DNA of 64,000 nt from Candidatus Omnitrophota bacterium (lineage in GTDB: Bacteria > Omnitrophota > Gorgyraeia > Gygaellales > Profunditerraquicolaceae). Under the pieces are notes generated by a model. It was not told the DNA's origin, did not search any database, and worked only from the letters and a program-made list of their open reading frames with translations. Where the stretch lies: positions 14,955 to 78,954 of the forward strand of contig JACQXK010000038.1 of assembly GCA_016208765.1 (NCBI GenBank). The letters run 5' to 3'. Numbering within the stretch: position 1 is the stretch's first letter; each line of letters begins with the position of its first letter. Below, piece after piece: positions 26,770 through 63,200 of this stretch. The translations under genes and the position numbers were made by a program.

Positions 26770-26885
26770 GCGCCTCCCCTTACCCCAAATTTCTTTAATC
26801 ATCGCGTTTATCTTCGCGCTCGTCATAATTTAATTAAAGAGAATTAAAATCTGTTTGTGAAACTGTTTAATAAGCAATTAAATAA

Positions 26886-27070
26886 AAAACCGGATTGTCA
26901 AAACCTTGTCTCGGTTCGGCAACCCGGCCATCCTTTGATAATACTCAATTTATCTTTTAGGACCCGTGGCTTTGCGCCCCCCGATTACTCGTCCCGTTCA
27001 ATAATCTTTCTAACGGGATCCCGCTTTTTTTGCGGGAGGGTTTGCCCTTCTCGTTCCAACCTCTAATTGC
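26886..27070 (-). promoter_or_regulatory. Conserved 5' leader L1 of giant gene A (structured RNA candidate ending in hairpin + U-tract)
   Basis: Homologous to 35088-35296 and partly to 45303-45489. Shared blocks: GCGGGAGGGTTT, CCCGTGGCTTTG(C/T)GCCCC, CGG(C/T)AACCCGGC, a hairpin, then AAAAATAAAA(A)CCG (U-tract on the sense strand). Confidence 0.5.
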
Positions 27071-27212: not shown

Positions 27213-27279
27213 TGTCATTCCCGCGGACACGGGCATCCAGGCATTTAAACGGTTGGATTCCCGCTTTCGCGGGAATGAC
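27213..27279. repeat. Palindromic intergenic repeat, GTCATTCCCGCG...CGCGGGAATGAC family, copy A
   Basis: gtcattcccgcggacacgggcatccaggcatttaaacggttggattcccgctttcgcgggaatgac. The outer 12-nt arms are inverted repeats, and the inner gggcatccagg/ctggattccc arms are also inverted. ORF-track ORFs here (WIPAFAGMT / VIPAKAGIQ) are translation artefacts of the repeat. Confidence 0.85.
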
Positions 27280-27327: not shown

Positions 27328-27417
27328 GTCATGCCCGCGGACTCCAGCGGCCTTGCCGCTAGGCAGGCGGGCATCCAGGCGTTCCAATAGCTGGATTCCC
27401 GCTTTCGCGGGAATGAC
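27328..27417. repeat. Palindromic intergenic repeat copy B (with extra inner hairpin insertion)
   Basis: gtcatgcccgcggactccagcggccttgccgctaggcaggcgggcatccaggcgttccaatagctggattcccgctttcgcgggaatgac. Confidence 0.85.
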
Positions 27418-27545: not shown

Positions 27546-30500
27546 TTAAAATTCTTCACGGGTTTCTCCTGAAGTTGAGAAAGTAACAGACTTATTTGTT
27601 TCAGTTGAGCTGCTTAAATCAGGATCATTGGATGGCTTTGCTTTAATATAATCCCACCTATAACCAACAGTGTCATCTCCCATTAAAGGCTTAACAAAAG
27701 CCTGCGGCATACCGTTAGCATTCCATGCCGGAGGCAGCATAATTGAAGCACGGCCTTCATAGGCAGCTCCAAGAGTAAGATCCTCAGGATTATCCTGCAC
27801 CAAAGTAATACCATTGCCCATATCCACCAGTTGGATCTTAAGTAATCCATCTCGTGCCTCTTCCAAGCTGATAATAGATTGTGCGGGATCCTGCCAGCGG
27901 CCCAATTCTTCACTAAGTTTCTTTATTTCTTCCTGCACTTCCTTTAATTTCTTTTCAGCTTCTTTTTTCTGCTGGCTATCATCACTCATCGCTTCCAAAC
28001 CTTTATTAATATTTTCTTCTTGTAGAACTAACTCTTCAACACTGCTTTTCTTATCCCTCAGATAATTTATGTCTTGAGTATAAATATTATATGCTGTGCG
28101 AATATTTGCCTCAATAGAATCTCTATTGTACGCTCCGTTACGGGGCAGGGTAAATGCCGGCGCCAACTGCAGATTATTTTCTGCCCGATAACCGGAAGTA
28201 ACGCCCCATTGCAATAACGGCGCATTTTCTTCGGTATTAAAACGGGTATACTTATAAACACCCGACTGCCAAACCACATTTGCCGGAGCGCTAAGCTGCC
28301 CTATCTGTTTCACATATTCAGTCCTCTCAAATAATTCTCCCGAGGTATGCTTATCTGCCTTGGCTCTTTCAGCATTGAACCTGTCAAACACAACGCGCTT
28401 TGTAAGCGGCAGATCTTTCTGCTCTTGGGCATCATCACCTTGGATAGCCTCAAACTGTTTAAAGTCAAATACAACACTCTGCGCAATTTGCCATATCTGG
28501 TCGGTTAAGCTGCTTGGAATTGCTGAATCAAATTGAGGTTTATTGCCACCGGCGTAAGCCGCATTCAATGCCTCTTCAAACATACGCTTCCCCTTGTCTC
28601 TTAAAAATGCTGCTTCTCTGCCTGTGTTTAAATACATATAAGGCTGCAGTGCCGGGCCTGAGCGGGTTTCAGAAAGGCGCCATGAGTAAGACGGATTTCC
28701 ATAAGGGCTGTGCCCTTGGCCGATAGAATAGAAGTTATAATTGTAGTCTGTATTTGCCCCGACGGAAACTGGAGCGTAGCCAGATGGCTGTATTTCAACT
28801 GTAGGAACAACTTCCGGCTTCTTAGGCTCCGGATCCCTCATCATTACCTCAAGGCTGCGCGGCAACCATATCACGCTGGCAGCAAGCATGTTAGCAACAT
28901 GGTGGCGAGGAGCTTTGTCTGGATCATAATCCTGGATAACCGCAGTTGTTGCAGCATCTCTTTTCATATTATTGCTCGGATAATCTGAATTGGATTGCAT
29001 ATTCCAATCTTCTAAGACAGTTGCCCAGCCAACAAATTTAACGGTAAATCTTTCTTTGTCTTTAGCAGACATTTCATTCCAAGCATCATGATTATTGGCA
29101 ATATACCACAAAAGCATTGTATTATGCGAAGTTGGCTTGTCGCTCTTAAACCCGCGTCCAACCCTTCCTTGTTTTTTATACCAACGCCTCACAATGCCAT
29201 CAAGTTCTTTCACCAAATCCGGATTATCAGCAAACAATTTCTCTGCATCCCGGTAAGAAACTTTCACCACTTCCACATCTTTGTTTTCAACTGCAGCTAT
29301 AAGCCTTTTTGTGGCCACAGCTTTAGCGGCCCTTTGCACCGGATCATCCCTGCTAAACAGCTGTTCCGTCGCTGTAGGCAGTTTTGGAAAACGAATAACT
29401 ACCCGAGCCTCAACAGGAACAGGGCTCTGCCCTTGAGGAGCAGCTGCTTGATCTTGCTTGCCAACTACGCTTTGCTCTTGCACATACTCCGGAGGAGTAA
29501 TCGCGGTGTAATCCGTTGTCCTGGTCAATGCAGAACCAAACGGGCCGTAATAATATTCGGTTGTCTTGGGCAATTGCACCAAATTCCAATTACCATTGGC
29601 AAAATCCTGGCCATCCTCACTAACAAAATCCTGCCCGAAATATTCTGTGCTTCTTGCCCTGCCCCATAAATCAACTCTGGTGCGCGATAAAAGGCTGGTA
29701 ACCGGCGAGAAAAATACCGGCCGCGCAGAAGAAAATTTGCGGATAATTTCTTTTTTATCTTCAAGTGACAAAGCCAATAATTTTTCTTTTTCGGCATTAA
29801 ATTCCTGCACTGCTTTTTCATCCTGAGCATCAGGCAATTGCATACGTTTTACAAATTTATCAAACTGCTCTTGCATAAACTGATCCTGAGTAACAAGGTC
29901 ACTCTTTTGAGCCTTAAGCATATCTTGTGTCAACGCCTGCATTACCGGCTGGGCGATAACAGAACGCCCATAGGTCAACTGATCCAGAGGCAATCCGCCG
30001 GCAACTGACAAAGAATAAGTGCTGTTTACTACTCCGTCGCCAATATTAGGTAAAGATAAATATTTACCCAAAATACCTCTTTCCTGCGGCTTAAGCATTG
30101 TTGAACTGCTGGCGCTAAAATGCCGCATAAATAATGCTTCATTAGTATTTAGGGATGCGTCCATACCTGCGGCCTCATCTCTGCGCTGGTAATGATAAAT
30201 ACCGCCGATTTGCCCATGGCCAAGGCTTGAATCATACACGGAATATTCCATTTGCCTTGCCTCTGCCATCTGCCTTGCCACAGGCAGAGCTTGCTGCATC
30301 CAATTATCTTCACCTTCTCCGCCTTTCTTGCTAAAGAAATAAACCGACTTATCTCTAAGCGCCCAACCTTGAGTAATTTCTGCAGTAGTAACAGGAGCAG
30401 AATCAGGTAACTTAGCGCTATACACAGGTGTTAACCCTTGTGCCGCAACCACCCACTGGAATATTTCCTGGCGCGGAATTGATAAATCTTGAAGTTGTCT

Positions 30501-33500
30501 ATTTATTTCTGGTAAAGGCGCTTTTATTGCATCCATTTCATCTCTCAATCCATTAATGCGTGTCTCCTGGATACTAACAAAATCCTTAACCTTACCTTCA
30601 AAAACACTGATTTCTTCTGCACCAAGCGCATCACGATTCATAGATTGTCCAGCAAGCTTATTAATATTTTCTACTTGCTCTTCTTCCCCAGCAAAAACAC
30701 CAAACTGAGCATTTGTGGCAACCACAAGCGAAATTGTATTAACATCCGGATTTAAACCTTGCTCTTTTGCCTTCTGCAAATCTTGATATGCTGCGTAAAT
30801 CGGATCTGCTTCCAGCTCTTTTTTCTTTTTCTCTTTTTTATTCACTTGCTCTGCAATTTCAGTTTTCTTTACTTCTAAGCCAACTATTTGCTCAGCTGTA
30901 TCAGGCTTATATCTCTTCGCAGTATCAATAAATCTTTCTGCCTGCTCTCTTAAGGCCTTTCTTCTTTGCGTTTCCTCTTTTACTAACTCGCTTGTAGGCT
31001 TAAAACTTGCGTAGGTGCGGGAAGAGCGAGGCAATATTGGATTTGTAAAAACAGCAGAAACAGATGAAGCCAGCCTTGAATTTGCCTGCTGGCTCAATGA
31101 TTCAAGCATTAATGCCCTATTAGCTTGTAACGGGCTGTAACCCTTTGCCCGCATTTTCATATATTCAATAAAACGATCCTGCTCATTAAATCTTGCCTGC
31201 AAACCATTCATTCCGTTAATCGGCGTCCTTAAATTAACCGGGAACAATGTGGCATTAACCGTTGACAGGAATAAATTATCCCCTATATTTTCCAAGGTAG
31301 CAGGAATAAACCTGCCCAACACATCACGCATGCTGAAATTAATTCTTCCTTTGCTGATTGGATCCTCGCCCAGAGAAGGCATTCTCCTGGTTTCTCCGGA
31401 GTAATCAAACCCAGCTATATTTAATCCATAAACAGTCCTGGTAATTTCGCGTGTGCGCACGCGGAAATCCTCCGGAGCAAGCTCTACTTCTTTTCTTTCT
31501 TTGGAAGATAAAACAATTATACCGGTTTCTTTCTTACCAACAACAACACCTTTCTCATTTACTACATCCATTATCTTACGGGTATCTTGTGCTACCGAAT
31601 ACACCGTAGTAGTATCTGCATCCAATTCAAATTCTCCGGTGGATTCACTTCTTGCTGTCCCGCCTTGCGCTCTTATCTGGCTGACTGAAGCATAATGCAC
31701 ATCGCCAGTGGCAGACTTTAAAGAAATAAGCGGATCAGCGGTATTTTCTGTCCAAAATTTAGTCCCGTTAATCTCATATCCGGGGAGAGTAATCATTTTT
31801 AATGGAGAACGCTGAGACGGGCCGGCAAAAATAAATTCACCTTCTCCTAAAATATTATACACATCAACTATCTCAGTTTTCTGAACCGATTTGTTAAATT
31901 CTTCTCCGCTCATCTCTAAAATATTGCCATCGGTAGAGATAAAAGTGTGTTCCGGAGAAGCATTGCCTTCTTGGTCAGTAGCTCTAATATAAGTCCGTCC
32001 ATCTCCGGCAAACCGATAGTATTCTACGCTCCGTCTTGGACCCGACTGGGCAATCGCAGCCCACTGCTCTGAAGAAACTTCTTTATTTTGTCCATCACCT
32101 AATGAATGCAAAATAACACCAGCTGGCTTAGCCTGCTGGCTAAATTTCTCCGGCGTCATAAAAGTCCTCTGGCCACCTGGAGTTGATGCTCCCAAAAGCA
32201 CTCCAGTAACTGTACTCACGCCCTTTAATGCCTGTCCACTGCCATATTGGACAACATTTGCGGATAAATCTTCCAACGACACTGAGATCTTCTTTTTAGT
32301 CGTTCCTTCGCTTTCCAATTCAACACTATTGCTATCCTGGCTATAGCCAACAATATGATAATATTGTATCTCACCTGAACCAGAACTAAGGCCTACTCGC
32401 ATAGGAGCATTATTTGATGCTGAAGTTTCTGATGATTTCTGCTGCAAACTTACCGCCAACTCTCTGCCGAAGTCATTTTGAAATTCATCCATTGTCTTAA
32501 GTTTTTCACTGCCGGCAACTATGATCGGCTGTTGATCACTTTTTTTCTCGTCTTTGTTTTCTTCCGGTTTATTCGCCACAAAATCAACAACCATTATATT
32601 TCCAGTAGCTATTACTTGGCTGATATTACCATCTCTGACATAAACCTGAATATCTGTTTTCTTTGCTCCTTGCTTTTCTTTTACCTCATCCAATGTTTCA
32701 GAAGAAAAATCTATATACTGGCCATCGGGGGCATGAGCCCTTGTTATATCTTTTGCCGGTGCGCGCAAGACCAAAGCATCAACCACTGAACCAGCCACTA
32801 CACCACTGGCAAGATGTAATAATTCCTGCAATGCCTGCGGTTGGCGAATTTCATTCACCCGGCAATACTGCCCCCAGGCAATTTGCAAGCCGGCATCCAC
32901 AGCATTATCAATTAGCGACTTTGCTATATATTTAGAAAGAGATAAACTTCCTCTTGTTCGCCAATAATTATCCTGGACTTTATTACCTGTTTTATCATCT
33001 GTCCAAGTCGTTCCGGAATACCATGTGTTTAAAACATCTATATTAGAAAACACACCGCTAGAAAAACCGGCAATTGCTCCAGCACCTACGCGCTTAACCA
33101 AATTATCAAAAATCTTATCATCATCGTCGCCGTAATGAGTCTTATACCCCATTGCTGATAAGACTGCAAGCTTAACCCCCAAATTAACAAAGGGTGCCAG
33201 CCCCATATTCTGCACCGCCTTAAAAGACTGATTCAATATGCCAAAATCACTCATTGTGTTTCCTTGCACATCAGTCATCAATCCACCGGTTGCATTTAAC
33301 AAAGCAGCTGTGTTAACATGCGCTTGTGTTAATAAATTCAACGTACTCAGTTGTGCCTGAGCAAGCTCTCTTCCTGAAACCTGGAGCAAAACATTTTCCT
33401 TTTCACCTGTTGGAATAATAAGAATTACTTTTTCGGCAGATTGTAAAATACCAGCGAGCGCTTTATTTTGCGCAACATCAGAAAGGGCGATACTCCCAGC

Positions 33501-35045
33501 ATTATCTATGGACGCTGTTGCCCCATTTAACTGCGCAGCTGTAAAAGAATATTCTTTACCGCTAATATCTCTGATAGACACCGCAGCCTGCTGCGCCTGA
33601 TTAACCGCATTTAACATAATAGCATCTGCCTGATCCAACGCTCCACCTACTGCACTTAAGCTATACCCTCCCACATACTGCATTAACGACCTATAAACAG
33701 AACCCTTGTTCATATCAATATCAAGCGTATATGTGTCTTCACCAATTTTTAAAACTAGCGCCTTCTGCAACTCTCCAATTTCTCCCGTATTAATTCCTTC
33801 CTGCAATGATGTACCTTTAGTAGTTTTGCCTTGAGATAATTCCTGGATACTAATTTCTACAGTTTCAACCTTACCGTCTTTTGTTTGCCGCGTAACTTTA
33901 ACTTTGTCATTTGACGTAGCCTGATCAGAAACTGCATCTAATGCAGAAAATGCCAAGTTTGAAACAAATTGGTTTACAAAAATCCCGGAAACGCTGGCTC
34001 CAAACTGCGACACTAAATCAGCCAGCAACTCATCCCACCCGGCTTCTTCAAGCTTATCCTTTATTCCCTGCTGTGTCCAAAGCTTAAATGTGCCGACAAT
34101 CATATCGCTTGCCAAATGCACCAATGGCTTCTTTACAGATAATTCAATCCCATATTGAAAATAAGGGCTGCGCATACCGTAGCTTGGTGAGAACTTTTGC
34201 AGCAAAGCTTCAATCTTACCCATAACAACATCAAAGGTAGATAAATTACCTAACACACCCTTAATAATATTTTCTTTAATGAGCGCTAAACTTTCTTCAG
34301 TAACCTGCGCTGTTATCTCTTTTGGAAGAATTTTTACTGCCTCACTTGCTGCCTTTTCCAATGCCTCTGCTGTAGGCTTTCCGCCTGCCTTGGCTACACT
34401 GGCTACTGCCGTTACCACAGCATTTTTTATTGCAGCCTCACAAACAGAGCTTATTACTTCCTCAACTATCTGATCCACGCCTTCTTTGCCAAGCGTTTTC
34501 AATACTTCTTGAGGCAACTGTTCAATTGCTTCCCTTGCAGCGCTCTCCATCATTGCCAGCGAGGCTCCTTTTGGCAATTCTTCTATTGCCTTTTTAGCAG
34601 CGCTTTTAGCTGTTTCCTTTGCCATTTCTTTTGCTGACTGCGCCACGCCGGCACCATAAGCCACGCCTACAGAAACTACCATACCGGCAACCATAGAATA
34701 AAACTGCCCCTTAGTAACCGTAACCCCAGCCACCTCAAACATCGGCTTTGCATACTGATTATAATTGTAATAGTAAAGCGCGTAACCAGTTACATCAGAA
34801 GCAGCAGAGCCCGCCGCTGCTGCAGCAGCTCCCCATGGGCCCAGAGCGTAAGCTCCCAAAAGTATTCCCGCATCAGTTACTGCACCTGCCAAAGCGCCTC
34901 CGGCAAAAGACTCCAGAGAAGTAGTGTTGCCATAATTGCCTTCTCTTGCCCAAGCCGGAGAAAGGCTGCTAAATAGAAAAACACCCGCCAGAATTAAGTA
35001 TGGGATTTTAAATCTTTTTAGGTTAGAGAAAAAGTTACTTTTCAT
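27546..35045 (-). CDS. Giant secreted protein B (about 2,499 aa), function unknown
   Basis: ORF track 27546..35060. I prefer the ATG at 35045 (MKSNFFSNLKRFKIPYLILAGVFLFSSLSPAWA, signal peptide with AWA cleavage site). The N-terminus has Gly/Ala-rich hydrophobic stretches. Long coiled-coil and charged segments; contains LASSVSAV and SPVTS-like motifs. Confidence 0.85.
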   Translation of the reverse strand: MKSNFFSNLKRFKIPYLILAGVFLFSSLSPAWAREGNYGNTTSLESFAGGALAGAVTDAGILLGAYALGPWGAAAAAAGSAASDVTGYALYYYNYNQYAKPMFEVAGVTVTKGQFYSMVAGMVVSVGVAYGAGVAQSAKEMAKETAKSAAKKAIEELPKGASLAMMESAAREAIEQLPQEVLKTLGKEGVDQIVEEVISSVCEAAIKNAVVTAVASVAKAGGKPTAEALEKAASEAVKILPKEITAQVTEESLALIKENIIKGVLGNLSTFDVVMGKIEALLQKFSPSYGMRSPYFQYGIELSVKKPLVHLASDMIVGTFKLWTQQGIKDKLEEAGWDELLADLVSQFGASVSGIFVNQFVSNLAFSALDAVSDQATSNDKVKVTRQTKDGKVETVEISIQELSQGKTTKGTSLQEGINTGEIGELQKALVLKIGEDTYTLDIDMNKGSVYRSLMQYVGGYSLSAVGGALDQADAIMLNAVNQAQQAAVSIRDISGKEYSFTAAQLNGATASIDNAGSIALSDVAQNKALAGILQSAEKVILIIPTGEKENVLLQVSGRELAQAQLSTLNLLTQAHVNTAALLNATGGLMTDVQGNTMSDFGILNQSFKAVQNMGLAPFVNLGVKLAVLSAMGYKTHYGDDDDKIFDNLVKRVGAGAIAGFSSGVFSNIDVLNTWYSGTTWTDDKTGNKVQDNYWRTRGSLSLSKYIAKSLIDNAVDAGLQIAWGQYCRVNEIRQPQALQELLHLASGVVAGSVVDALVLRAPAKDITRAHAPDGQYIDFSSETLDEVKEKQGAKKTDIQVYVRDGNISQVIATGNIMVVDFVANKPEENKDEKKSDQQPIIVAGSEKLKTMDEFQNDFGRELAVSLQQKSSETSASNNAPMRVGLSSGSGEIQYYHIVGYSQDSNSVELESEGTTKKKISVSLEDLSANVVQYGSGQALKGVSTVTGVLLGASTPGGQRTFMTPEKFSQQAKPAGVILHSLGDGQNKEVSSEQWAAIAQSGPRRSVEYYRFAGDGRTYIRATDQEGNASPEHTFISTDGNILEMSGEEFNKSVQKTEIVDVYNILGEGEFIFAGPSQRSPLKMITLPGYEINGTKFWTENTADPLISLKSATGDVHYASVSQIRAQGGTARSESTGEFELDADTTTVYSVAQDTRKIMDVVNEKGVVVGKKETGIIVLSSKERKEVELAPEDFRVRTREITRTVYGLNIAGFDYSGETRRMPSLGEDPISKGRINFSMRDVLGRFIPATLENIGDNLFLSTVNATLFPVNLRTPINGMNGLQARFNEQDRFIEYMKMRAKGYSPLQANRALMLESLSQQANSRLASSVSAVFTNPILPRSSRTYASFKPTSELVKEETQRRKALREQAERFIDTAKRYKPDTAEQIVGLEVKKTEIAEQVNKKEKKKKELEADPIYAAYQDLQKAKEQGLNPDVNTISLVVATNAQFGVFAGEEEQVENINKLAGQSMNRDALGAEEISVFEGKVKDFVSIQETRINGLRDEMDAIKAPLPEINRQLQDLSIPRQEIFQWVVAAQGLTPVYSAKLPDSAPVTTAEITQGWALRDKSVYFFSKKGGEGEDNWMQQALPVARQMAEARQMEYSVYDSSLGHGQIGGIYHYQRRDEAAGMDASLNTNEALFMRHFSASSSTMLKPQERGILGKYLSLPNIGDGVVNSTYSLSVAGGLPLDQLTYGRSVIAQPVMQALTQDMLKAQKSDLVTQDQFMQEQFDKFVKRMQLPDAQDEKAVQEFNAEKEKLLALSLEDKKEIIRKFSSARPVFFSPVTSLLSRTRVDLWGRARSTEYFGQDFVSEDGQDFANGNWNLVQLPKTTEYYYGPFGSALTRTTDYTAITPPEYVQEQSVVGKQDQAAAPQGQSPVPVEARVVIRFPKLPTATEQLFSRDDPVQRAAKAVATKRLIAAVENKDVEVVKVSYRDAEKLFADNPDLVKELDGIVRRWYKKQGRVGRGFKSDKPTSHNTMLLWYIANNHDAWNEMSAKDKERFTVKFVGWATVLEDWNMQSNSDYPSNNMKRDAATTAVIQDYDPDKAPRHHVANMLAASVIWLPRSLEVMMRDPEPKKPEVVPTVEIQPSGYAPVSVGANTDYNYNFYSIGQGHSPYGNPSYSWRLSETRSGPALQPYMYLNTGREAAFLRDKGKRMFEEALNAAYAGGNKPQFDSAIPSSLTDQIWQIAQSVVFDFKQFEAIQGDDAQEQKDLPLTKRVVFDRFNAERAKADKHTSGELFERTEYVKQIGQLSAPANVVWQSGVYKYTRFNTEENAPLLQWGVTSGYRAENNLQLAPAFTLPRNGAYNRDSIEANIRTAYNIYTQDINYLRDKKSSVEELVLQEENINKGLEAMSDDSQQKKEAEKKLKEVQEEIKKLSEELGRWQDPAQSIISLEEARDGLLKIQLVDMGNGITLVQDNPEDLTLGAAYEGRASIMLPPAWNANGMPQAFVKPLMGDDTVGYRWDYIKAKPSNDPDLSSSTETNKSVTFSTSGETREEF

Positions 35046-35087
35046 ATTTTTAAGTGGCAAATACTTTTTGAAACTGTTTAGGATTTA

Positions 35088-35296
35088 AGCAAAAATAAAA
35101 CCGAGCTGCCTTTATTCAAACTCGGCAACCCGGCTACCCAAAAAATGATTCCAAATAAACTCGGTAAACTACATTTCTCCGAGGGGCCCGTGGCTTTGTG
35201 CCCCCTGATTACTCATCCCGCTCAATAATCTTTTTAACGGGATCCCGCTTTGCGGGAGGGTTTACTCTTATCGAACTGACCTTTATTATTTACTAC
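35088..35296 (-). promoter_or_regulatory. Conserved 5' leader L2 of giant gene B (paralog of L1) ending in hairpin CCGAG...CTCGG + UUUUAUUUUU, 45 nt before the ATG
   Basis: About 85-90% identical to L1 over the core cccgtggctttgtgccccctgattactcatcccgctcaataatctttttaacgggatcccgctttgcgggagggttt. Confidence 0.5.
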
Positions 35297-35419: not shown

Positions 35420-35509
35420 GTCATGCCCGCGGACGCCAGCGACCTTGCCGCTAGGCAGACGGGCATCCAGGCGTTCCAACGGCTGGATTCCCGCTTTCGC
35501 GGGAATGAC
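35420..35509. repeat. Palindromic intergenic repeat copy C
   Basis: gtcatgcccgcggacgccagcgaccttgccgctaggcagacgggcatccaggcgttccaacggctggattcccgctttcgcgggaatgac. Nearly identical to copy B. Confidence 0.85.
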
Positions 35510-42110: not shown

Positions 42111-42176
42111 GTCATGCCCGCGGACGCGGGCATCCAGACGTTCCAATGGCTGGATTCCCGCATTCGCGGGAATGAC
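42111..42176. repeat. Palindromic intergenic repeat copy D (between the tadE-like gene and the Cys-rich pseudopilin gene)
   Basis: gtcatgcccgcggacgcgggcatccagacgttccaatggctggattcccgcattcgcgggaatgac. Confidence 0.85.
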
Positions 42177-44916: not shown

Positions 44917-44975
44917 TTTCTCACCTCCTTCACAATAAGTGAACACTTGCCTATCCAATAAGGCAAGGTGCCTTT

Positions 44976-45119
44976 TTATTTTAATTCGTCCTGAATCTGT
45001 TTAATTCTTGCGTTCATTGAACGATATACATAACGCTGCGTAATTAACAGTGCCCCGGCCACTACGGTAAACAATAAAACAAACTCAATAATACTTTGTG
45101 CTCTTTTATTCCTAATCAA
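44976..45119 (-). CDS. flp: Flp-family pilin missing from the ORF track (flp2, 47 aa, TTG start)
   Basis: Hand translation: (M)IRNKRAQSIIEFVLLFTVVAGALLITQRYVYRSMNARIKQIQDELK*. GGGGGTG lies 5 nt upstream of the TTG. An upstream in-frame TAG rules out a longer ORF. Confidence 0.6.
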   Translation of the reverse strand: MIRNKRAQSIIEFVLLFTVVAGALLITQRYVYRSMNARIKQIQDELK

Positions 45120-45291
45120 CTTGCACCCCCATAAATGCTGCTATGGTCTGAAAATGATTCTCAAACACATTATTCTTTGTTTTTAGAAGAAAATCAGTGC
45201 TTACTAAGGCAATCACAGCTACTGCTGCCAAAAGCAGATATTCTACGAAAGATTGTCCAATCTGGTTTCTTAAAGACTTTTTAAATTTCAT
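45112..45291 (-). CDS. flp: Flp-family pilin (flp1, about 59 aa), first gene of the pilin array, under promoter/leader L3
   Basis: ATG at 45291 preceded by AAGGAG. MKFKKSLRNQIGQSFVEYLLLAAVAVIALV. The track ORF 45112..45444 reads through the leader. Confidence 0.75.
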   Translation of the reverse strand: MKFKKSLRNQIGQSFVEYLLLAAVAVIALVSTDFLLKTKNNVFENHFQTIAAFMGVQVD

Positions 45292-45302
45292 TAGTATCTC
45301 CT

Positions 45303-45489
45303 TAAATAAAAAACCGACGTCTCTTTTACTTTCAAAGAAACCTCGGCTTTCGGTAACCCGGCTAATGCTCTCGCTCTTGACCTTAAAGCTTAAAGCAATG
45401 AAGACAAATCTTGCGAGCGTCATCCCGTGGCTTTGCGCATCCACCCCTCCAAGAGTGGAATTGCCTTTTCGTTGCCGCCCTTCAACTAC
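45303..45489 (-). promoter_or_regulatory. Leader L3 upstream of the flp array, sharing the 3' half of the L1/L2 leader
   Basis: Sense strand: ...GCGCAAAGCCACGGG...GCCGGGTTACCGAAAGCCGAGG...GACGTCGGTTTTTTATTTAAGGAGatactaATG. aaataaaaaaccg matches L1 exactly over 13 nt. Confidence 0.45.
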
Positions 45490-45495
45490 ATCATA

Positions 45496-45524
45496 AATAT
45501 AACATGCACAAACATGGGTGTCAA
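45496..45524 (-). promoter_or_regulatory. Sigma70-like promoter of the flp array (TTGACA, 17 nt spacer, TATATT)
   Basis: Sense strand: TTGACAcccatgtttgtgcatgtTATATT. An ATGTCC half-site abuts the -35. Confidence 0.5.
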
Positions 45525-47797: not shown

Positions 47798-47823
47798 ATC
47801 CTTCGCTCGTTCAGGATGACGTC
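47798..47823. repeat. S-element copy 3 (reverse orientation) spanning the tadZ-tadA stop codon
   Basis: gatccttcgctcgttcaggatgacgtc. Confidence 0.6.
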
Positions 47824-49967
47824 TTAAAGACATCATCGGACAAAGCAATGCCTTTAATTTTAAGCTCTTGCACAAATGGAGGGATGTAACCGGTAGCCGT
47901 AAAATTTCCTAAAACCTTGCCCTGATTGTCAACGCCGGTCTGACGAAAATTAAAAACGTCTTTTAAGCCGATATGTACTTCGTCTTTCATGCCGCTCAAC
48001 TCTGATATTTGTATTATTTTACGCGTCCCGTCGCTAAGGCGGGCAGTGTGCACAATAATATGCAATGCAGAAGCAATCATCTCACGAATAGCCCTGATCG
48101 GAAGCTCTACTCCTGACATAAGGATCATAGAATCAAGCCTGACTAAAACATCCTGCGTAGAATTAGCATGCACAGTCGTCATAGAGCCGTCGTGGCCTGT
48201 GTTCATTGCCTGAAGCATGTCCAGGGTTTCTGCGCCGCGGCACTCTCCTATAACAATTCTATCGGGGCGCATACGCAGAGTGTTACGAAAGAGTTCACGG
48301 ATAGAAATCATCCCTTTCCCTTCAATGTTAGGCGGACGCGACTCTAACCTGATCCAATGCTCCTGGCTTAATTTAAGTTCAGCCGCATCTTCAATAGTAA
48401 CAATTCGCTCGGTATTTGGGATAAAAGCTGAGAGGATATTTAAAACCGTAGTCTTACCCGAACCCGTCCCACCGGAAACAATAACATTCTTTCTGGCGAC
48501 AACACACGCCCTGATAAAATCTGCCATTGCCTTACTAACAGAGTTCATGGCGATTAATTCTTCTATCTTAAATTTTTCTTTTCTAAATTTACGGATCGTC
48601 AGCGTCGGCCCGGTAAGCGCCAAAGGCGGGATAATCGCGTTTACGCGCGAGCCGTCGGCAAGGCGGCTATCCACCATCGGCACAGATTCATCAATGCGCC
48701 GGCCGGTAGGAGCAATGATACGCTCAATAATCGTTTTTACCTGATCATTAGAAATAAACTTTTTGCTGGTCAGCTCTATTTTTCCATGACGCTCAATATA
48801 CACTTCATCTTTGTTATTAACCATGATGTCGGTAATGCCGGGGTCTGCCAAAAGGTCTTCTAAAGGGCCCAACCCAAGCGCCTCATCAACTATTTCCTTG
48901 ATAAATTTGTTGCGCACCTCCATAGAAGAAATAAAACTGCCGGCCTCATCGGTGAGTAAGTTAGAAACAATTACTTCTGCTTTCTTCCTAAGCTCATGTT
49001 TTTTCACCGCGTCGCTAAAGATCTTGACGTCTAGCCTTTTAATATTCATTTCATCAATCAGGCGGTTATGGATCCGGCGTTTGATCAAAAGCACCTGATC
49101 GGTTTCTGCTGCCACCTCTTCCTCTTGCCCGGCAACGCTAACACCGAATTCTTTCCAAAATGCCGCAGGCTTCTCCAACTGCTCCTTACCTGCCTCAAGA
49201 GCCCCGATCTCTCTGTGAGAAGTATATAATCTTTCTTCAACGATAAGTTTGTGCGCGAATTTCTTGATTGCCTGAGAGATGCCGGATTTAGGCACATCTA
49301 CCACTACCGGAACGCGGCGGTTAATAGAAAGCCCGACGATTTTACCCTCTGAGGGCAGTGCCGCAATAATCTCGCTGGACAAATTAACCTGCAACTCTTC
49401 AAGGCTGATACTTGAAACAGATTCTGAACGGTTAATCACCACCTTGATCATCGTCAAAGGAAAATGCATTGACTGCAAAGTATCCACAACCCACTTCGTC
49501 TGGTATACAGATAAAATATCCGGAGTTACCAAAAGAAGGATCAAGTTTGACTGATTAATTGAACGCATAAATATTTCATTAAAACTCTTACCGGCATCAA
49601 TTACAACATAATCATAATCGCTGGCATATAATTTAAAAATTGTATCAATGCACTCAGGAGGCAAAATCGCGGCCTGTTGCGGTTTTAAAACCGCAGGAAG
49701 GAAATCAAAACCAAAAGCAGTATGCGTAATAAATGCCTGCTTTTCCGCATCAGCCTTTTGTCTTTTAATGGCTCCGGAGATATCAATCATTGATTTTTGC
49801 GGGCCAAGATTAAGCATCCTTGACAGATCCCCTACACCCTGCAAATCAAAATCCATTAACAAGACGCGTTTTTTCTCGTCGCGGGAAAGGCTCGCGGCAA
49901 GATTAGAGGCGACAAAGGTTTTACCCACTCCACCTTTTGTGCTGAATATTGATATTACCTTAGACAT
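47811..49967 (-). CDS. tadA: Fused TadZ/CpaE-like (MinD/ParA-type) N-terminal domain + TadA/CpaF secretion ATPase
   Basis: N-terminus MSKVISIFSTKGGVGKTFVASNLA (deviant Walker A). C-terminal part VSGGTGSGKTT...DRIVIGECRG...TGHDGSMTTVHANS (VirB11/CpaF Walker A, Walker B, His box). Confidence 0.8.
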   Translation of the reverse strand: MSKVISIFSTKGGVGKTFVASNLAASLSRDEKKRVLLMDFDLQGVGDLSRMLNLGPQKSMIDISGAIKRQKADAEKQAFITHTAFGFDFLPAVLKPQQAAILPPECIDTIFKLYASDYDYVVIDAGKSFNEIFMRSINQSNLILLLVTPDILSVYQTKWVVDTLQSMHFPLTMIKVVINRSESVSSISLEELQVNLSSEIIAALPSEGKIVGLSINRRVPVVVDVPKSGISQAIKKFAHKLIVEERLYTSHREIGALEAGKEQLEKPAAFWKEFGVSVAGQEEEVAAETDQVLLIKRRIHNRLIDEMNIKRLDVKIFSDAVKKHELRKKAEVIVSNLLTDEAGSFISSMEVRNKFIKEIVDEALGLGPLEDLLADPGITDIMVNNKDEVYIERHGKIELTSKKFISNDQVKTIIERIIAPTGRRIDESVPMVDSRLADGSRVNAIIPPLALTGPTLTIRKFRKEKFKIEELIAMNSVSKAMADFIRACVVARKNVIVSGGTGSGKTTVLNILSAFIPNTERIVTIEDAAELKLSQEHWIRLESRPPNIEGKGMISIRELFRNTLRMRPDRIVIGECRGAETLDMLQAMNTGHDGSMTTVHANSTQDVLVRLDSMILMSGVELPIRAIREMIASALHIIVHTARLSDGTRKIIQISELSGMKDEVHIGLKDVFNFRQTGVDNQGKVLGNFTATGYIPPFVQELKIKGIALSDDVFKTSS

Positions 49968-49970
49968 AAT

Positions 49971-51647
49971 TTACTCTAACTGATAGGAAATCGGGATATC
50001 CACCCATAATTCTTTAGTGCCGATTGTCGTAGGAAACGGAGGATACTGAGAAATCTGTTTTGCAACTTTTAAAGCGTTATCGTCAAGTATTTTATAGTTT
50101 GAGGAATTCTTAACCACGGCATCCAGCAAATCACCTTTGTAAGAAATAAGCAGGCTCAGTTGCACTGTCCCTTCAAACCCGGATTGCTTTGCTTGGGCAG
50201 GATAGGCTAAATTCTTCATAATCTTTTGTTTGATTATGCCTGTGTATTTTGCAACAGGGTCTAACGCATACTCGTCTGCAACTTCAACTGTAGAAGCAGC
50301 TTTTTTTGCCTGCTCCATGCTAATATCCATTTGTTTTGCATCTGGGGTTAACGGTTGTTGAGGTTTTTCGGCATCTGCAGGCTGCTCCTCGGTTTTCTTT
50401 TCCAAATAAGGAGTTTCCCTGCTGACAATCGTCGGGGTAATGATAATATATAATTCGGTATCTGCTTTCTGCCCTGTGCCGCCGCCGGTCTTGGTTACTC
50501 TTTTTCTAAAAGCTCCCCCAACCAAAGGAAGGTCCCCGAACCAGGGAACCTTGGTTACCTGTTCCTCGGTTTTCCTGCGCATCAGGCCGCCGATGGATAA
50601 TGTCTGCCCGTTCAACAGGAATAGCTCTGTTGAGGCATTGCGCTTGGTTAATGGGAATGCCTTTGCAGTAATGTTGGTCGCTGTGCCAAGAGTTTCCGCC
50701 TCGCCGTAATCGCTAACCTCCATTTTCACTCCCAACTTAATACGGTCATCGGGCATTACTGTTGGTTTCATCTTAAGCTTAATCCCAAATTCTTTATACT
50801 CAACTTCTGTGCCGGAAGAACCTGCTGTCGCCGCCACAGAAGTAGTGAGCACGGGCTTTTCTCCTCCGACGAGCAATTCAGCTTCTTTGCCGCTTTGACA
50901 GGCAAGCCGCGGACGGGAAAGAATCTTTGCCTTACCCTCCTCTATTAAAGCATCCAGCTTTAAGGTAAATGCGCTGTCTCGCTTAACATTTAAAAGCCTG
51001 AATACATTAGAAAATGCCGTACCACCAGCAGCCAAACCCGGAGAGCCTACTTCAGTAAGACTGACAGAACTCGGCCAGGTAACTCCGAGAGTTTTGCTTG
51101 CATCCTGATCAAGTTCTAAAACCTGCACATCAATTTCTACCACAGATTCTTCTTCGCGGACAGTAGTCAAATTTATTGTTTTTGCCATTAAAGGGCCGAG
51201 CGCCAAAGAAATTTTTTTAATGTCATCGTCGCTTTTTACCCTGCCTAAAAGCATTACCTTGCCTTCCTCATCAGAATCCTTTGTATATACCTCGGGAAGA
51301 TCTAAAGTTTCGAGCATGCTGTCTATTCTACGTTTAATATCCTTCATATCTTCTGTATAGACCCTTATTTCCTGTGACTTTTCTCCGGAAGCATCCCAAT
51401 AAAAAAGAGTAGTTGTGCCTCGGCCTTTGGCAGCAACAATGATAGTATCTTTGCTGACCTCTACCACATCAATTACCTGAGGGTTAGAAATTACTATTCT
51501 CGTCGGGTTAGAAGCAGAAATAGGCCGCGTGTCTCCGACATACATAACAAATTCCTCGCCTGATTTATCCGCAGCGCCCAAAACGCCAAAACAACATAAA
51601 ATTGCAAACCCCGACACAATAAAACTCTGCAAGATTCTTTTTGTCAT
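49971..51647 (-). CDS. cpaC: Tad secretin (RcpA/CpaC family) with C-terminal TonB-C-like domain
   Basis: Secretin core ...TLSIGGLMRRKTEEQVTKVPWFGDLPLVGGAFR...ELYIIITPTIV. C-terminus YPAQAKQSGFEGTVQLSLLISYKGDLLDAVVKNSS...LDDNALKVAKQISQYPPFP matches the TonB_C pattern. Confidence 0.75.
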   Translation of the reverse strand: MTKRILQSFIVSGFAILCCFGVLGAADKSGEEFVMYVGDTRPISASNPTRIVISNPQVIDVVEVSKDTIIVAAKGRGTTTLFYWDASGEKSQEIRVYTEDMKDIKRRIDSMLETLDLPEVYTKDSDEEGKVMLLGRVKSDDDIKKISLALGPLMAKTINLTTVREEESVVEIDVQVLELDQDASKTLGVTWPSSVSLTEVGSPGLAAGGTAFSNVFRLLNVKRDSAFTLKLDALIEEGKAKILSRPRLACQSGKEAELLVGGEKPVLTTSVAATAGSSGTEVEYKEFGIKLKMKPTVMPDDRIKLGVKMEVSDYGEAETLGTATNITAKAFPLTKRNASTELFLLNGQTLSIGGLMRRKTEEQVTKVPWFGDLPLVGGAFRKRVTKTGGGTGQKADTELYIIITPTIVSRETPYLEKKTEEQPADAEKPQQPLTPDAKQMDISMEQAKKAASTVEVADEYALDPVAKYTGIIKQKIMKNLAYPAQAKQSGFEGTVQLSLLISYKGDLLDAVVKNSSNYKILDDNALKVAKQISQYPPFPTTIGTKELWVDIPISYQLE

Positions 51648-60200: not shown

Positions 60201-63200
60201 AGTTATACCCAAAAACGCTCCCATCTCGCGCAGGAGATTCTCGCTATGCTGATGAACGGATATAAATTCTTTTACGTTTGGCCCGACCCAGTCAGAAACA
60301 AAAATAATCTTGCTTGATTGTGTCATCACTTCAAAAAACTGCTCTTTGTTTAATCCTAATTCACCTGCTACAGCATTATATTCATCCTCAGTACGCATCT
60401 CTACTAATTGCAACATATTTTCTTGTTGGGCGTTGCGTAAAATAGATAGCGTTTCAGAAGGCAAAAGTTGCTCATTCTTTTCTGAGAATGTAATTTTCTT
60501 CTGGGCTATCGTTGCTTCAACATCTAATCTTATCATCGGCAGGTAAACACGCAAAACCCGCGGCACAACCCTTTTACCTCCCGGAGTCCGTATTTGCAAA
60601 CTTAAACAATAGTTCTTAATACTTCTTGGATCAGGCGTTATGCCTCGCACATGCGCCTGTTTGTTATCCACAACCGCCTTAAAACCACTTTCTAATAACA
60701 ACGAATCAACTACTCTGCCTTTTGTTTCATTCACCGCCGAAGAAGCAAAATTTCTTTCACCTATAATTATCTTATCTCCCGGCCGTATATCGGGTATTTT
60801 TGAAAAAAGATTGAATCTGCCCTCGTCATTAACAACGGCATTTAATGCTCTTATTTTACCCGTACTTATTCTATACCTACGCCCAATCCCCCAAAGAGTG
60901 TCTCCTTTTCTCACCACGTGCCGAATCTCGAGAGGCAATCTCAGTTGCTGGCCTGCTTTAATTCTATGCATGCTGCGTAAACGGTTAATCCGGGCTAACT
61001 GCCCTGCAAGTTTTGCATTGCCATAATATTTAATTGCGATATGTCCCAAAGTATCGCGCGGCTTAACATCAATATATACATCTCCACGCTGCGGAGGTGG
61101 CTGAGCAAACTCTGGCGGCGGAATTTCAATGAACTTTTTAATCTCCATATCTAACAATCCCGGGAACCCGGCTGTGATAATTCCGAAAATTAAACCGGCT
61201 GCGATAATTCTAAAAATAGAGACAAGCCCTGATGTTTTTTCTTTATTCAAATGCTTTATCAAATTTATTCTTGGCGTTAAAAATAATTGGCTTGTAGGAA
61301 CCCTGTTATAATTAATAGGTTGAATATTATCTGATTCATCAAATTCAGGTACATTAAATTCAGGCCCATCATTATACGGCCCAGTAATTTCCTGATCCGT
61401 GATAGCTTCCACTGGCTGAGGCATCTTTGCATTGTAATAACCTAATTTTTGTAAAACTTTTTCTAAATCCCTGCGAACCGCCTCAGGTTTGCGGGTAACC
61501 CCCGATTCCCTATTTTCTAATGCTAATGCGCGCAATACTGCGTTAATTGTTTGTTGGTCTCTAAACAGCACCGGCAAGGTTAATTCCCTAAAAGCAGCAG
61601 AACGCACAGAATAGTCCTTATCTCTAATTAAGATTTCAACTAAAATTGGAGTTGAAAAACGATAATCAATCTTAGTAATTATTTTAATTATATCCTTTCG
61701 GACAGGAGATTTCTGGTCTTTTAGTCTATCGCGAAGCAGCTCTAAAGCAGGGTTACCTATGCGAATTAAAACATTTCCTATATTTTCATACCCAGAATCC
61801 CTATTCTCTAAAGCTGAAATAAGCTCAGGCACAGCAGCCTCTCCAATGCTGACCAAAATTTCAGCTGCGTCTTCCTTAATCGGACTGGACACTCCTTTTA
61901 GTAACGCGTCAATCAACGGCTTAACCGCCGGCTTACCAAAATTGGTTAAATCTTTGACAATAACTGTTCTTTCCTGAAAACCAAGTTTTTGGTTTAATCT
62001 GTCAATAAGCAACGAAATTACATAATCAACCCCGCCGTACTTAATTAAACCTTCAAGCGCGGCTTGGTGAACTCCCGGGTCATCATCTCTTAATAAGTTA
62101 AGTAAAATTAACACCGCAGGCTGAGGTACAATGTTTTTTAAAATATTATTACCGGCAAAAAATCCGTTCTTTTCTGAATATTCACGGACAGACCTGTCCC
62201 GCATAGCATTTTCTCTCAATGCCTGGCGCAAACCTTTGATTGAATATGGAGAACGCACCCAGCCAATCTGAACTGCTGCCCGGGCGACCTCCTCCCGGAC
62301 ACTCTTGTTTTCATCCCCGCTTAAATCAATTAAAACAGGAAATGCGGCAGGGTCTTTCATTTGAGCTAATGTTTGGACAACCTTTACGCGAATATCGGGA
62401 TTGGGATCATCGGCTAATCTCAGCAATGAATGTACTGCAATCCTGATTATTCCATCACGAAGAGGGGGGTCAGCCAGTTGAAGCAAAATATTCGTTATTG
62501 CTGAATAAACAGTTAAGCCGTGGTCAGGAAAATATTCTTCTGGAAACATTCTTTCTAAATCACGCAGTATCGTCAACAGATAATCTGTATTATTTCTTCC
62601 TCGCACAATTAATTCAATACGCGCAGACTCACGAGGAAGCAAACCTGCATATAAATCTTTAAGCAAAGGCCCGATGCTTGGATCGTCCGTTGCTGATAAT
62701 ATTGGAGAAGAGGAATTTACATAATTTCCAACCGCCGAGGAGGCGCTGGTACCTTTGACAGGTGCAATCGCGGAGCTTGCATTTTGTTTAGTTAGGGACG
62801 GTTCTGAAACATGCTTAAAAGTATCCCCCAGCGATGGCGCGGCTGCCGAAGAAGCACTATTTCTTCCCGCAAAAATAATTCCGCTATGTGCTTCAGCCTC
62901 TTTTGAACCTTCTCCATAGGCCTTAATAAACTCGTCCATCTCAGCAATGACTTCGTTTTCTAACGGAACCCCCTGAGAAAATAACCTTGCTTTAATTTTC
63001 TCTTTCTCTTGATAGGCTAAATTAAAATCAAAATGCGATAGTGCATCTGCAAAACTATCTATCAACGAAAGGTATTCTTTTCTTGAAGACGCCGCGTCAA
63101 AACTCCTTAACAAGAGAATCAGTTCATTAAAAATGTGCTCTCTAATCCTCTCCTTTTTAACAAATAATTCCACATAACCCTTGTCTTTTTCCTCCAGGCA

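Follow-up and report, generated by a model that had tools for sequence, protein, structure and literature searches.

The c-di-GMP-I riboswitches (GEMM-I, RF01051) were described as a P1 hairpin, made of 2-bp and 6-bp stems around a 3-nt internal loop, that is joined by AAA to the hairpin P2, with a GNRA tetraloop "almost always" present on P1, frequent and not obligatory (PMC1950547). In that founding paper, 78 of 322 examples have terminators that overlap P2 on its 3' side, the ligand is predicted to raise expression, and the targets include the pilus genes cpaA, pulF and pilM/O/Q as well as lysin-domain genes (PMC1950547). In Vc2 of Vibrio cholerae, the type example of RF01051, G20 recognises one guanine of c-di-GMP and C92 pairs with the second, and a G20A change lets the RNA bind both c-di-GMP and cGAMP (PMC6140456). 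The GEMM-Ib riboswitch before pilM of Geobacter metallireducens is a characterised transcriptional ON switch in which aptamer and terminator are mutually exclusive and the terminator takes the ligand-pairing C (PMC9262584). In Clostridioides difficile, c-di-GMP relieves termination at Cdi-2-4, a c-di-GMP-II riboswitch upstream of pilA1, and sister riboswitches switch on adhesin genes (PMC6366702).

A locus described in Omnitrophota by West-Roberts et al. 2023 (bioRxiv 10.1101/2023.11.21.568195) encodes a rotamase, RcpC, a secretin, an ATPase, GspF-like proteins and many small proteins with class III signal peptides, and adjoins giant genes that encode C39-like domains at the N-terminus. The paper also noted PilZ genes and GGDEF domains near the giant genes, which point to c-di-GMP signalling. 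In the text of that paper the words "riboswitch" and "c-di-GMP" have zero occurrences in the searched spellings, and section 11 has cyclic di-GMP. The word "riboswitch" is absent from the searched literature on Omnitrophota and giant genes, and "c-di-GMP riboswitch" searched together with "Omnitrophota" gave nothing.

The leader analysed here precedes an array of Flp-type pilin genes at a locus of the West-Roberts kind, in a 64,000-nt stretch of an Omnitrophota genome (the window); two further copies, L1 and L2, precede the first and second giant genes. With Vc2 the pilin copy shares the two-hairpin aptamer, the 2-bp GC stem, the AAA linker and the equivalents of G20, A47 and C92, and with the c-di-GMP-I class at large the 5' leader position and a terminator laid over the 3' side of the aptamer. 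It departs from Vc2 and the RF01051 consensus in having no GNRA loop on P1, where the loop reads CUUGGAGG, in the 3' side of the P1 internal loop (UGC and not GAC), in a 39-nt insertion in P2, and in its Omnitrophota host. Geobacter pilM has the same aptamer fold before a pilus assembly gene; it carries A at position 20 and senses 3',3'-cGAMP, whereas the window pilin copy carries G, and only L2 (A, 35266) resembles pilM there. Cdi-2-4 is likewise a c-di-GMP riboswitch in the leader of a pilin gene, but with the unrelated class II aptamer fold, type IVa-like rather than Flp/Tad pili, and a Gram-positive host.

Methods

All genes in this part of the window lie on the minus strand, so the leader was read as the reverse complement; on that strand the shared blocks read CGGUUUUUUAUUU, GCGCAAAGCCACGGG and GCCGGGUUACCG. 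The window was scanned with Rfam at curated thresholds (gathering score of RF01051, 35 bits) and again permissively, with E up to 1. Model positions 11, 38 and 83 of RF01051 were assigned to G20, A47 and C92 of Vc2 by our own count. Structures were folded with RNAfold. Homologues of the 604-aa protein encoded upstream of the leader numbered 132 at E ≤ 1e-5, and all source-named ones among the 120 matches listed of these 132 are Omnitrophota. Nine loci with a homologue were fetched (L083-L091) and gave, with the window, ten leaders, which were aligned using MAFFT without fitting to structure. A MAFFT alignment of the three window leaders misplaced the pilin copy, the insertions lying in different hairpins, and Rfam alignments were used there instead. 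An own covariance model, R1, recovers its training sequences by construction and missed the copy at L083:1605-1703.

Results

Features of the window are provided in Table 1. The pilus locus sits between the second and third giant ORFs and runs, downstream along the minus strand, through a rotamase (PPIase), RcpC/CpaB, the secretin, a fused ATPase and the 604-aa protein, which matches no Pfam family, to the riboswitch leader; then follow six Flp-like pilin ORFs, larger pilin-like proteins, two T2SSF (TadB/TadC) proteins and a lipoprotein. The 604-aa protein has an identical NCBI entry from a metagenome-assembled Candidatus Omnitrophica genome. In the ATPase, a ParA/MinD-like (TadZ/CpaE-type) domain is fused to a CpaF/TadA domain, and the secretin has a TonB C-terminal domain (47811-49967, 49971-51647); both recur in related Omnitrophota loci. 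The set that marks a Tad/Flp locus is present in Flp pilins, TadB/TadC, the TadA/CpaF ATPase, RcpC/CpaB and the RcpA/CpaC secretin; no prepilin peptidase (TadV/CpaA) turned up in the scanned proteins of the window. The earlier note on this DNA had spoken of an flp pilin array, and the six short ORFs with the Flp-type G-x4-E-Y/F motif inside a Tad-type locus agree with that name. Between the second and third pilin ORFs, at 44946-44967, a scan flagged a 7-bp GC-containing hairpin as terminator-like for the plus strand; its U tract on the coding strand is weak, and the hairpin could adjust how strongly the first two pilins are expressed relative to the genes downstream.

Near the N-terminus of the first giant protein lies a C39-like peptidase domain, and the protein also has a LysM domain; at the N-terminus it shares 38% identity with the product of a 40,116-aa ORF of the related locus L087. 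The ORF list is empty between 9 kb and 27.5 kb because, as a stop-to-stop scan shows, a single open frame extends from 26829 past the low end of the window; the plus-strand ORFs listed inside this frame are probably spurious. In contrast to the pilin genes, both giant genes with a leader in the window have no obvious Shine-Dalgarno sequence at the first start codon.

Table 1. Positions, strands and supporting observations for leader elements and genes of the window
Feature	Position	Strand	Basis and remarks
Sigma-70-type promoter, flp leader	45496..45524	-	TTGACA, 17 nt, TATATT, TG before the -10; 11/12 matches
c-di-GMP-I aptamer, flp leader	45344..45479	-	RF01051 at 45349-45475, 40.2 bits; includes outer P1 helix
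Outer P1 helix, flp leader	CGGC 45477-45474 with GCCG 45347-45344	-	
P1a hairpin UCCACU / GGUGGA	45440..45459	-	8-nt loop at 45446-45453; GGAGG at 45450-45446
G, equivalent of Vc2 G20	45465	-	RF01051 model position 11; Rfam alignment
A, equivalent of Vc2 A47	45434	-	Model position 38; first A of linker after 2-bp GC stem; Rfam alignment
C, equivalent of Vc2 C92	45353	-	Model position 83; Rfam alignment
Predicted intrinsic terminator, flp leader	45304..45350	-	RNAfold; stem 45350-45310, then U6AU3 to 45304
Shine-Dalgarno AAGGAG of flp1	45298..45303	-	Read from sequence; flp1 start codon 45291-45289
flp1, 59-aa Flp-type pilin	45112..45291	-	Contains NQIGQSFVEYLLLAAV
Five further Flp-like pilin ORFs	45119-44976, 44916-44728, 44704-44327, 44310-43861, 43834-43502	-	Motifs AQSIIEF, GQSILEY, AQSTAEY, GQSILEY, GQSIVEY
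First giant ORF	1-26829	-	Single open frame of >8,943 codons, runs off window
Second giant ORF	27546-35060	-	2,504 aa
Third giant ORF	54216 to beyond 64000		Runs off other window end; leader outside window
Second c-di-GMP-I aptamer (L1)	26915..27056	-	RF01051, 46.6 bits; leader of giant ORF 1-26829; promoter 27105-27077
L1 terminator	26880..26929	-	5' arm GGCCGGGUUG (26929-26920) is P2 3' strand; then U tract
Third c-di-GMP-I aptamer (L2)	35121..35276	-	RF01051, 35.6 bits, barely over 35; leader of 2,504-aa ORF 27546-35060; promoter 35331-35303
L2 terminator	35091..35134	-	5' arm GCCGGGUUGCC (35134-35124) is P2 3' strand and C92 region; then U tract

The sequence shared by the pilin and giant-gene leaders was followed by block. 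The 13 nt reported earlier as identical to L1, AAATAAAAAACCG, do occur exactly twice in the window, at 45304-45316 and 26880-26892; two or more matches arose in 9 of 100 shuffles, so that the 13-mer alone is weak evidence. Two further blocks that had been called conserved recur in both giant-gene leaders: CCCGTGGCTTTGCGC is exact at 45424-45438 and 26963-26977 and has one mismatch at 35187-35201 (three matches in 0/100 shuffles), and CGGTAACCCGGC is exact at 45351-45362 with one mismatch at 26917-26928 and 35123-35134, a count again reached by none of 100 shuffles. A fourth one-mismatch match of the latter, at 61161, lies within a gene and looks like chance. On the RF01051 consensus, GCGCAAAGCCACGGG comprises the end of P1, the AAA linker and the 5' strand of P2, GCCGGGUUACCG the 3' strand of P2 and the 3' tail, and CGGUUUUUUAUUU is the end of the terminator. 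The module left unnamed in the earlier note consists of the P2 half and the 3' tail of a c-di-GMP-I aptamer together with its terminator.

At curated thresholds the Rfam scan gave three RF01051 matches in the window, all on the minus strand and all above the gathering score; the permissive scan, with E up to 1, returned no further RF01051 copy. The score of the pilin copy is only 5 bits over the cut-off. Its P1 reads GC / AAU / UCCACU … GGUGGA / UGC / GC, followed by AAA and P2, which gives the 2-bp and 6-bp stems and the 3-nt internal loop of the family. Besides the equivalents of G20 and C92, it retains that of A47, likewise a ligand-contact nucleotide of Vc2. Strong promoter matches stand 20-30 nt upstream of each of the three aptamers. 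By score, architecture, contact nucleotides, covariation and position, as judged from sequence, the leader at 45304-45524 is a member of the c-di-GMP-I (GEMM-I) class; it is a known class of RNA and not a new kind, and standard Rfam-based annotation would label it without difficulty. The Rfam matches above the gathering score, each with its own promoter upstream, agree with the earlier proposal that the element acts as an RNA and not as a coding feature or a promoter feature of giant genes only.

The terminator of the flp leader has a stem with the arms AAAGCCGA-G-GUUUCUUU and AAAGAGAC-G-UCGGUUUU, and its 5' arm takes the GCCG of the outer P1 helix. It begins one base past the inner P1 pair, and its overlap with the aptamer is confined to the 4 bp of the outer P1 helix, and the minimum-energy structure predicted for this leader contains P1a, P2 and the terminator side by side. 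The earlier note had placed the same hairpin with U6AU3 immediately before AAGGAG. The hairpin and U6AU3 do end 1 nt before AAGGAG (45303-45298), while the sequence of the hairpin differs from those in the giant-gene leaders and only its last bases (CGG) and the U tract are common to them. None of the three window terminators was picked up by a simple consensus terminator scan. Against an enforced aptamer fold, the terminator fold is more stable by 10.7 (pilin leader), 4.9 (L1) and 9.6 (L2) kcal/mol, which makes termination, the off state, the predicted default of all three.

In every leader with a resolved terminator, its 5' arm comes from the 3' part of the aptamer and the remainder varies; L085, for instance, has CCGGGUUACC…GGUAACCCGG followed by U9. 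Of the ten orthologous pilin leaders, six have a terminator that takes the 3' strand of P2 and the C92 region, and so do five leaders of the giant-gene type (the two of the window and those of L083, L087 and L090); this excludes coexistence of aptamer and terminator in them. The predicted terminator stem and the predicted aptamer share nucleotides, as in a transcriptional ON switch. The ribosome-binding site of flp1 lies outside all predicted pairing, and for that reason no translational component is seen.

Each of the nine related loci has the same leader in the interval from the 604-aa homologue to the first pilin gene, and gene order is conserved. It is about 270-310 nt long in eight of them and about 500 nt in L089; the 604-aa homologue and the first pilin gene are divergent in L089, with the leader nonetheless ahead of the pilins. 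In three loci (L086:9305-9787, L087:7879-8361 and L089:11969-12451) a gene for a Y1-type (IS200-like) transposase adjoins the 604-aa homologue, and none is present there in the window. The ten leaders align end to end as promoter, GGCGGCAACGAAAAG, P1a hairpin, UGCGCAAAGCCACGGG, extended P2, UAGCCGGGUUACCGAAAGCCG, terminator and CGGUUUUUU, and TTGACA with a TATATT -10 is conserved in all ten. The Rfam cut-off is reached independently by six leaders, the five besides the window at 37.4-44.6 bits, and four fall below it.

In the alignment of the ten leaders, 90.8% of cells are paired, compared with 24-39% for slid controls. Changes on both sides are seen at five pairs, four of which are among the six of P1a, and the observed covariation score was reached by 0 of 500 shuffles. 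The P1a stem occurs in three unrelated versions, UCCACU/AGUGGA, GGUGAGA/UCUCACC and GCUUAA/UUAAGC. These compensatory changes keep the base pairs, and no reading frame is conserved across the module, which bears out an RNA function. The P1 helices never vary among the orthologues and are therefore uninformative, being neither supported nor contradicted by covariation. The P1a loop contains GGAG in 10/10 pilin leaders, though the stem below it is fully replaced in some. A search by eye of the leaders for a conserved partner of the GGAGG loop gave only U-rich tracts, which have no discriminating power. A uORF from the GGAGG-AUG pair was considered as the reason for this conservation and rejected: the uORF varies in length, and its start codon is missing from L083.

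Position 20 is G in seven pilin leaders, C in L083 (L083:3815-3934) and A in L087 (L087:11758-11910), where an extra hairpin is inserted just before it, and L088:12459-12587 has lost the GC/GC stem and the GCGCAAAG motif. To judge by these substitutions, ligand binding may be altered or lost in some of the L083, L087 and L088 pilin riboswitches. The A47 and C92 equivalents are retained in nearly all orthologues.

The giant-gene leaders are paralogous copies of the pilin-leader device. At the equivalents of G20, A47 and C92, L1 has G, A and C as the pilin copy does; in L2, the Rfam alignment places the A of position 20 beside a compensated GU/AC stem (G-C/U-A). By the GEMM-Ib definition, A for G20 as in the cGAMP-sensing or bispecific RNAs of that type, the pilin copy is excluded, and L2 agrees in sequence at this single position. 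A20 was tried as a feature conserved between orthologous giant-gene leaders and discarded, the other A20 copy (L083:1605-1703) preceding an unrelated FHA-like gene. Both L1 and L2 carry a 50-54-nt insertion in P1a (26983-27036 and 35207-35256) that folds into extra hairpins, and they keep a GUAA loop on a short side hairpin that reads CGAGUAAUCG in one and UGAGUAAUCA in the other, a compensatory difference. The orthologous giant-gene-type copies of L083, L087 and L090 have a plain GNRA hairpin.

Several other repeated sequences lie near these leaders. A REP-like palindromic repeat, TCCCGCGAAAGCGGGAATCC, stands at 27255-27274, 27393-27412, 35485-35504 and 42152-42171, with no matches in shuffles; copies precede both giant-gene promoters, and a single one lies within the pilus locus. 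The first hairpin of the P1a insertion of L1 and L2 resembles this repeat. An identical 12-nt box, TAAACAGTTTCA, follows the terminator and precedes the start codon in each of the two giant-gene leaders, at 26858-26869 and 35069-35080. Some orthologous pilin leaders with longer tails (L090, L091 and L083) have similar, AAACAGUUU-like sequences in those tails.

In the related loci, additional GEMM-I copies stand before orthologues of the first giant gene (L083:13244-13346 and L087:20959-21053, the latter ahead of the 40,116-aa ORF), before two proteins with a putative FHA-type N-terminus (L083:1605-1703, at 64.9 bits in Rfam, and L088:8336-8428), and before small or truncated ORFs (L091:5772-5867 and L090:21619-21708). 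The N-termini of the L083 and L088 proteins appear, by our own reading of their sequences, to be of the filamentous-haemagglutinin type. Over the window and the related loci, the genes after the copies are pilins, giant proteins or FHA-like proteins where they can be identified, and otherwise small or truncated ORFs. The earlier note had reasoned that copies before unrelated housekeeping genes, or randomly placed, would indicate a mobile repeat; every copy found is in a 5' leader.

The association is not universal. The 505-nt leader of a 30,621-aa giant ORF (L086:20021-20524) gave no c-di-GMP-I match in Rfam, whereas the orthologous leaders of L083 and L087 have one. By TadZ/CpaF protein, the nearest matches are Omnitrophota at 52-54% identity at best, and in the nine closest of these loci Rfam detected no GEMM-I, so that the pilin-riboswitch association belongs to the clade that carries the 604-aa gene. 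In an Omnitrophota of another lineage (L003), a pilin array is present without a riboswitch detectable by Rfam or R1. R1 was near-silent on 80 CpaF loci from other phyla, which says little since it missed L083:1605-1703. In an unrelated uncultured bacterium (L054:420-522), a canonical c-di-GMP-I riboswitch with a terminator precedes six Flp-like pilin genes and a Tad locus; an extra promoter-like TTGACA-17-TATAAT lies there between the terminator and the first pilin.

Discussion

The pilin leader most probably combines a promoter, a c-di-GMP-I aptamer and a terminator that work as a transcriptional ON switch, with the same device in the giant-gene leaders and the genes co-induced. Without ligand, the terminator hairpin would form and transcription would end at the U tract. 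With c-di-GMP bound, the pilin aptamer would close the outer P1 helix and hold the GCCG needed for the base of the terminator, and with GCCG so held RNA polymerase would read through into the pilin array. In L1 and L2 the terminator would compete directly with the 3' strand of the aptamer P2. High c-di-GMP would in this way turn on the Tad-type pilins and the giant proteins together. In the window pilin leader the ON logic rests on the outer P1 helix, and the invariance of this helix in the orthologues means that it draws no support from covariation.

The pilin copy could act in another way, as a constitutive attenuator or an OFF switch: aptamer and terminator would form together, and the ligand would leave termination unrelieved or even favour it. 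Such an arrangement would suit a minimum-energy pilin-leader fold that contains the terminator together with P1a and P2, and an overlap of four invariant P1 pairs only; OFF switches of this aptamer class also exist, for instance Cd1 of C. difficile (PMC9262584). This is nevertheless unlikely, because in six of the ten pilin leaders and the five giant-gene-type leaders the terminator itself takes the P2 3' strand and the C92 region; an OFF switch also requires a separate anti-terminator, of which none is apparent, and c-di-GMP usually induces pili and surface proteins (PMC6366702). Less probable still is that the pilin-type aptamer senses another ligand, 3',3'-cGAMP or a further dinucleotide, with the GGAG loop, the UGC internal loop and the extended P2 as signs of changed specificity. 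Position 20 is not fixed among the orthologues, as L083 and L087 show, the Vc2 RNA with G20A takes both c-di-GMP and cGAMP (PMC6140456), and the pilin copy scores near the family cut-off; yet G20 stands in the window copy and six other orthologues, the A47 and C92 equivalents in nearly all, and the odd features are peripheral, outside the junction that holds the ligand.

Two readings that deny the shared sequence a riboswitch role altogether are scarcely plausible. Were it a mobile or REP-like intergenic repeat that reached three leaders by accident, the exact blocks common to the three copies and the true REP-like repeat TCCCGCGAAAGCGGGAATCC in the same intergenic regions would be accounted for. 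Against this, only three copies occur in 64 kb, all oriented with the downstream gene and between promoter and start codon; the pilin copy is at the same place in loci whose neighbour protein is only 35-60% identical, and the leaders show compensatory substitutions rather than change as a unit. Equally improbable is a coding stretch, as an N-terminal extension of flp1 or a leader peptide. A GTG at 45444 does open a stop-free frame into flp1 in the window, and an AUG stands 5 nt past the P1a-loop GGAGG in seven of the ten leaders, but stops fall in all three frames in 8/10 orthologous leaders, the differences in leader length are not multiples of three, and the AUG frame ends after 6 codons in the window and has no AUG in L083.

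A wider reading, which we regard as rather unlikely, is that the pilin-leader riboswitch is a distinct Omnitrophota subclass of GEMM-I in which an invariant GGAG(G) loop, and an extended P2 with a conserved GGGUCRRA motif, have taken the place of the GNRA loop and its receptor. The Shine-Dalgarno-like loop could then be a second input, for a CsrA-type protein or a ribosome, or a new tertiary contact. As a separate point, c-di-GMP riboswitches would be the shared switch of the Tad-like pilus and the giant proteins. Others have proposed the giant proteins and the Tad-like locus as tools of Omnitrophota for prey attachment or predation.

As riboswitch biology the finding is routine, GEMM-I having been found in 2007 before pilus and surface-protein genes with the same terminator design. 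Its value is for the Omnitrophota, an uncultured phylum with giant genes of up to about 40,000 codons in a related locus. The regulation of the giant genes and of the Tad-like locus is not addressed in the searched literature, and the riboswitches give a hypothesis, testable in vitro, of their joint induction by c-di-GMP, which would fit the PilZ and GGDEF domains already noticed near giant genes.
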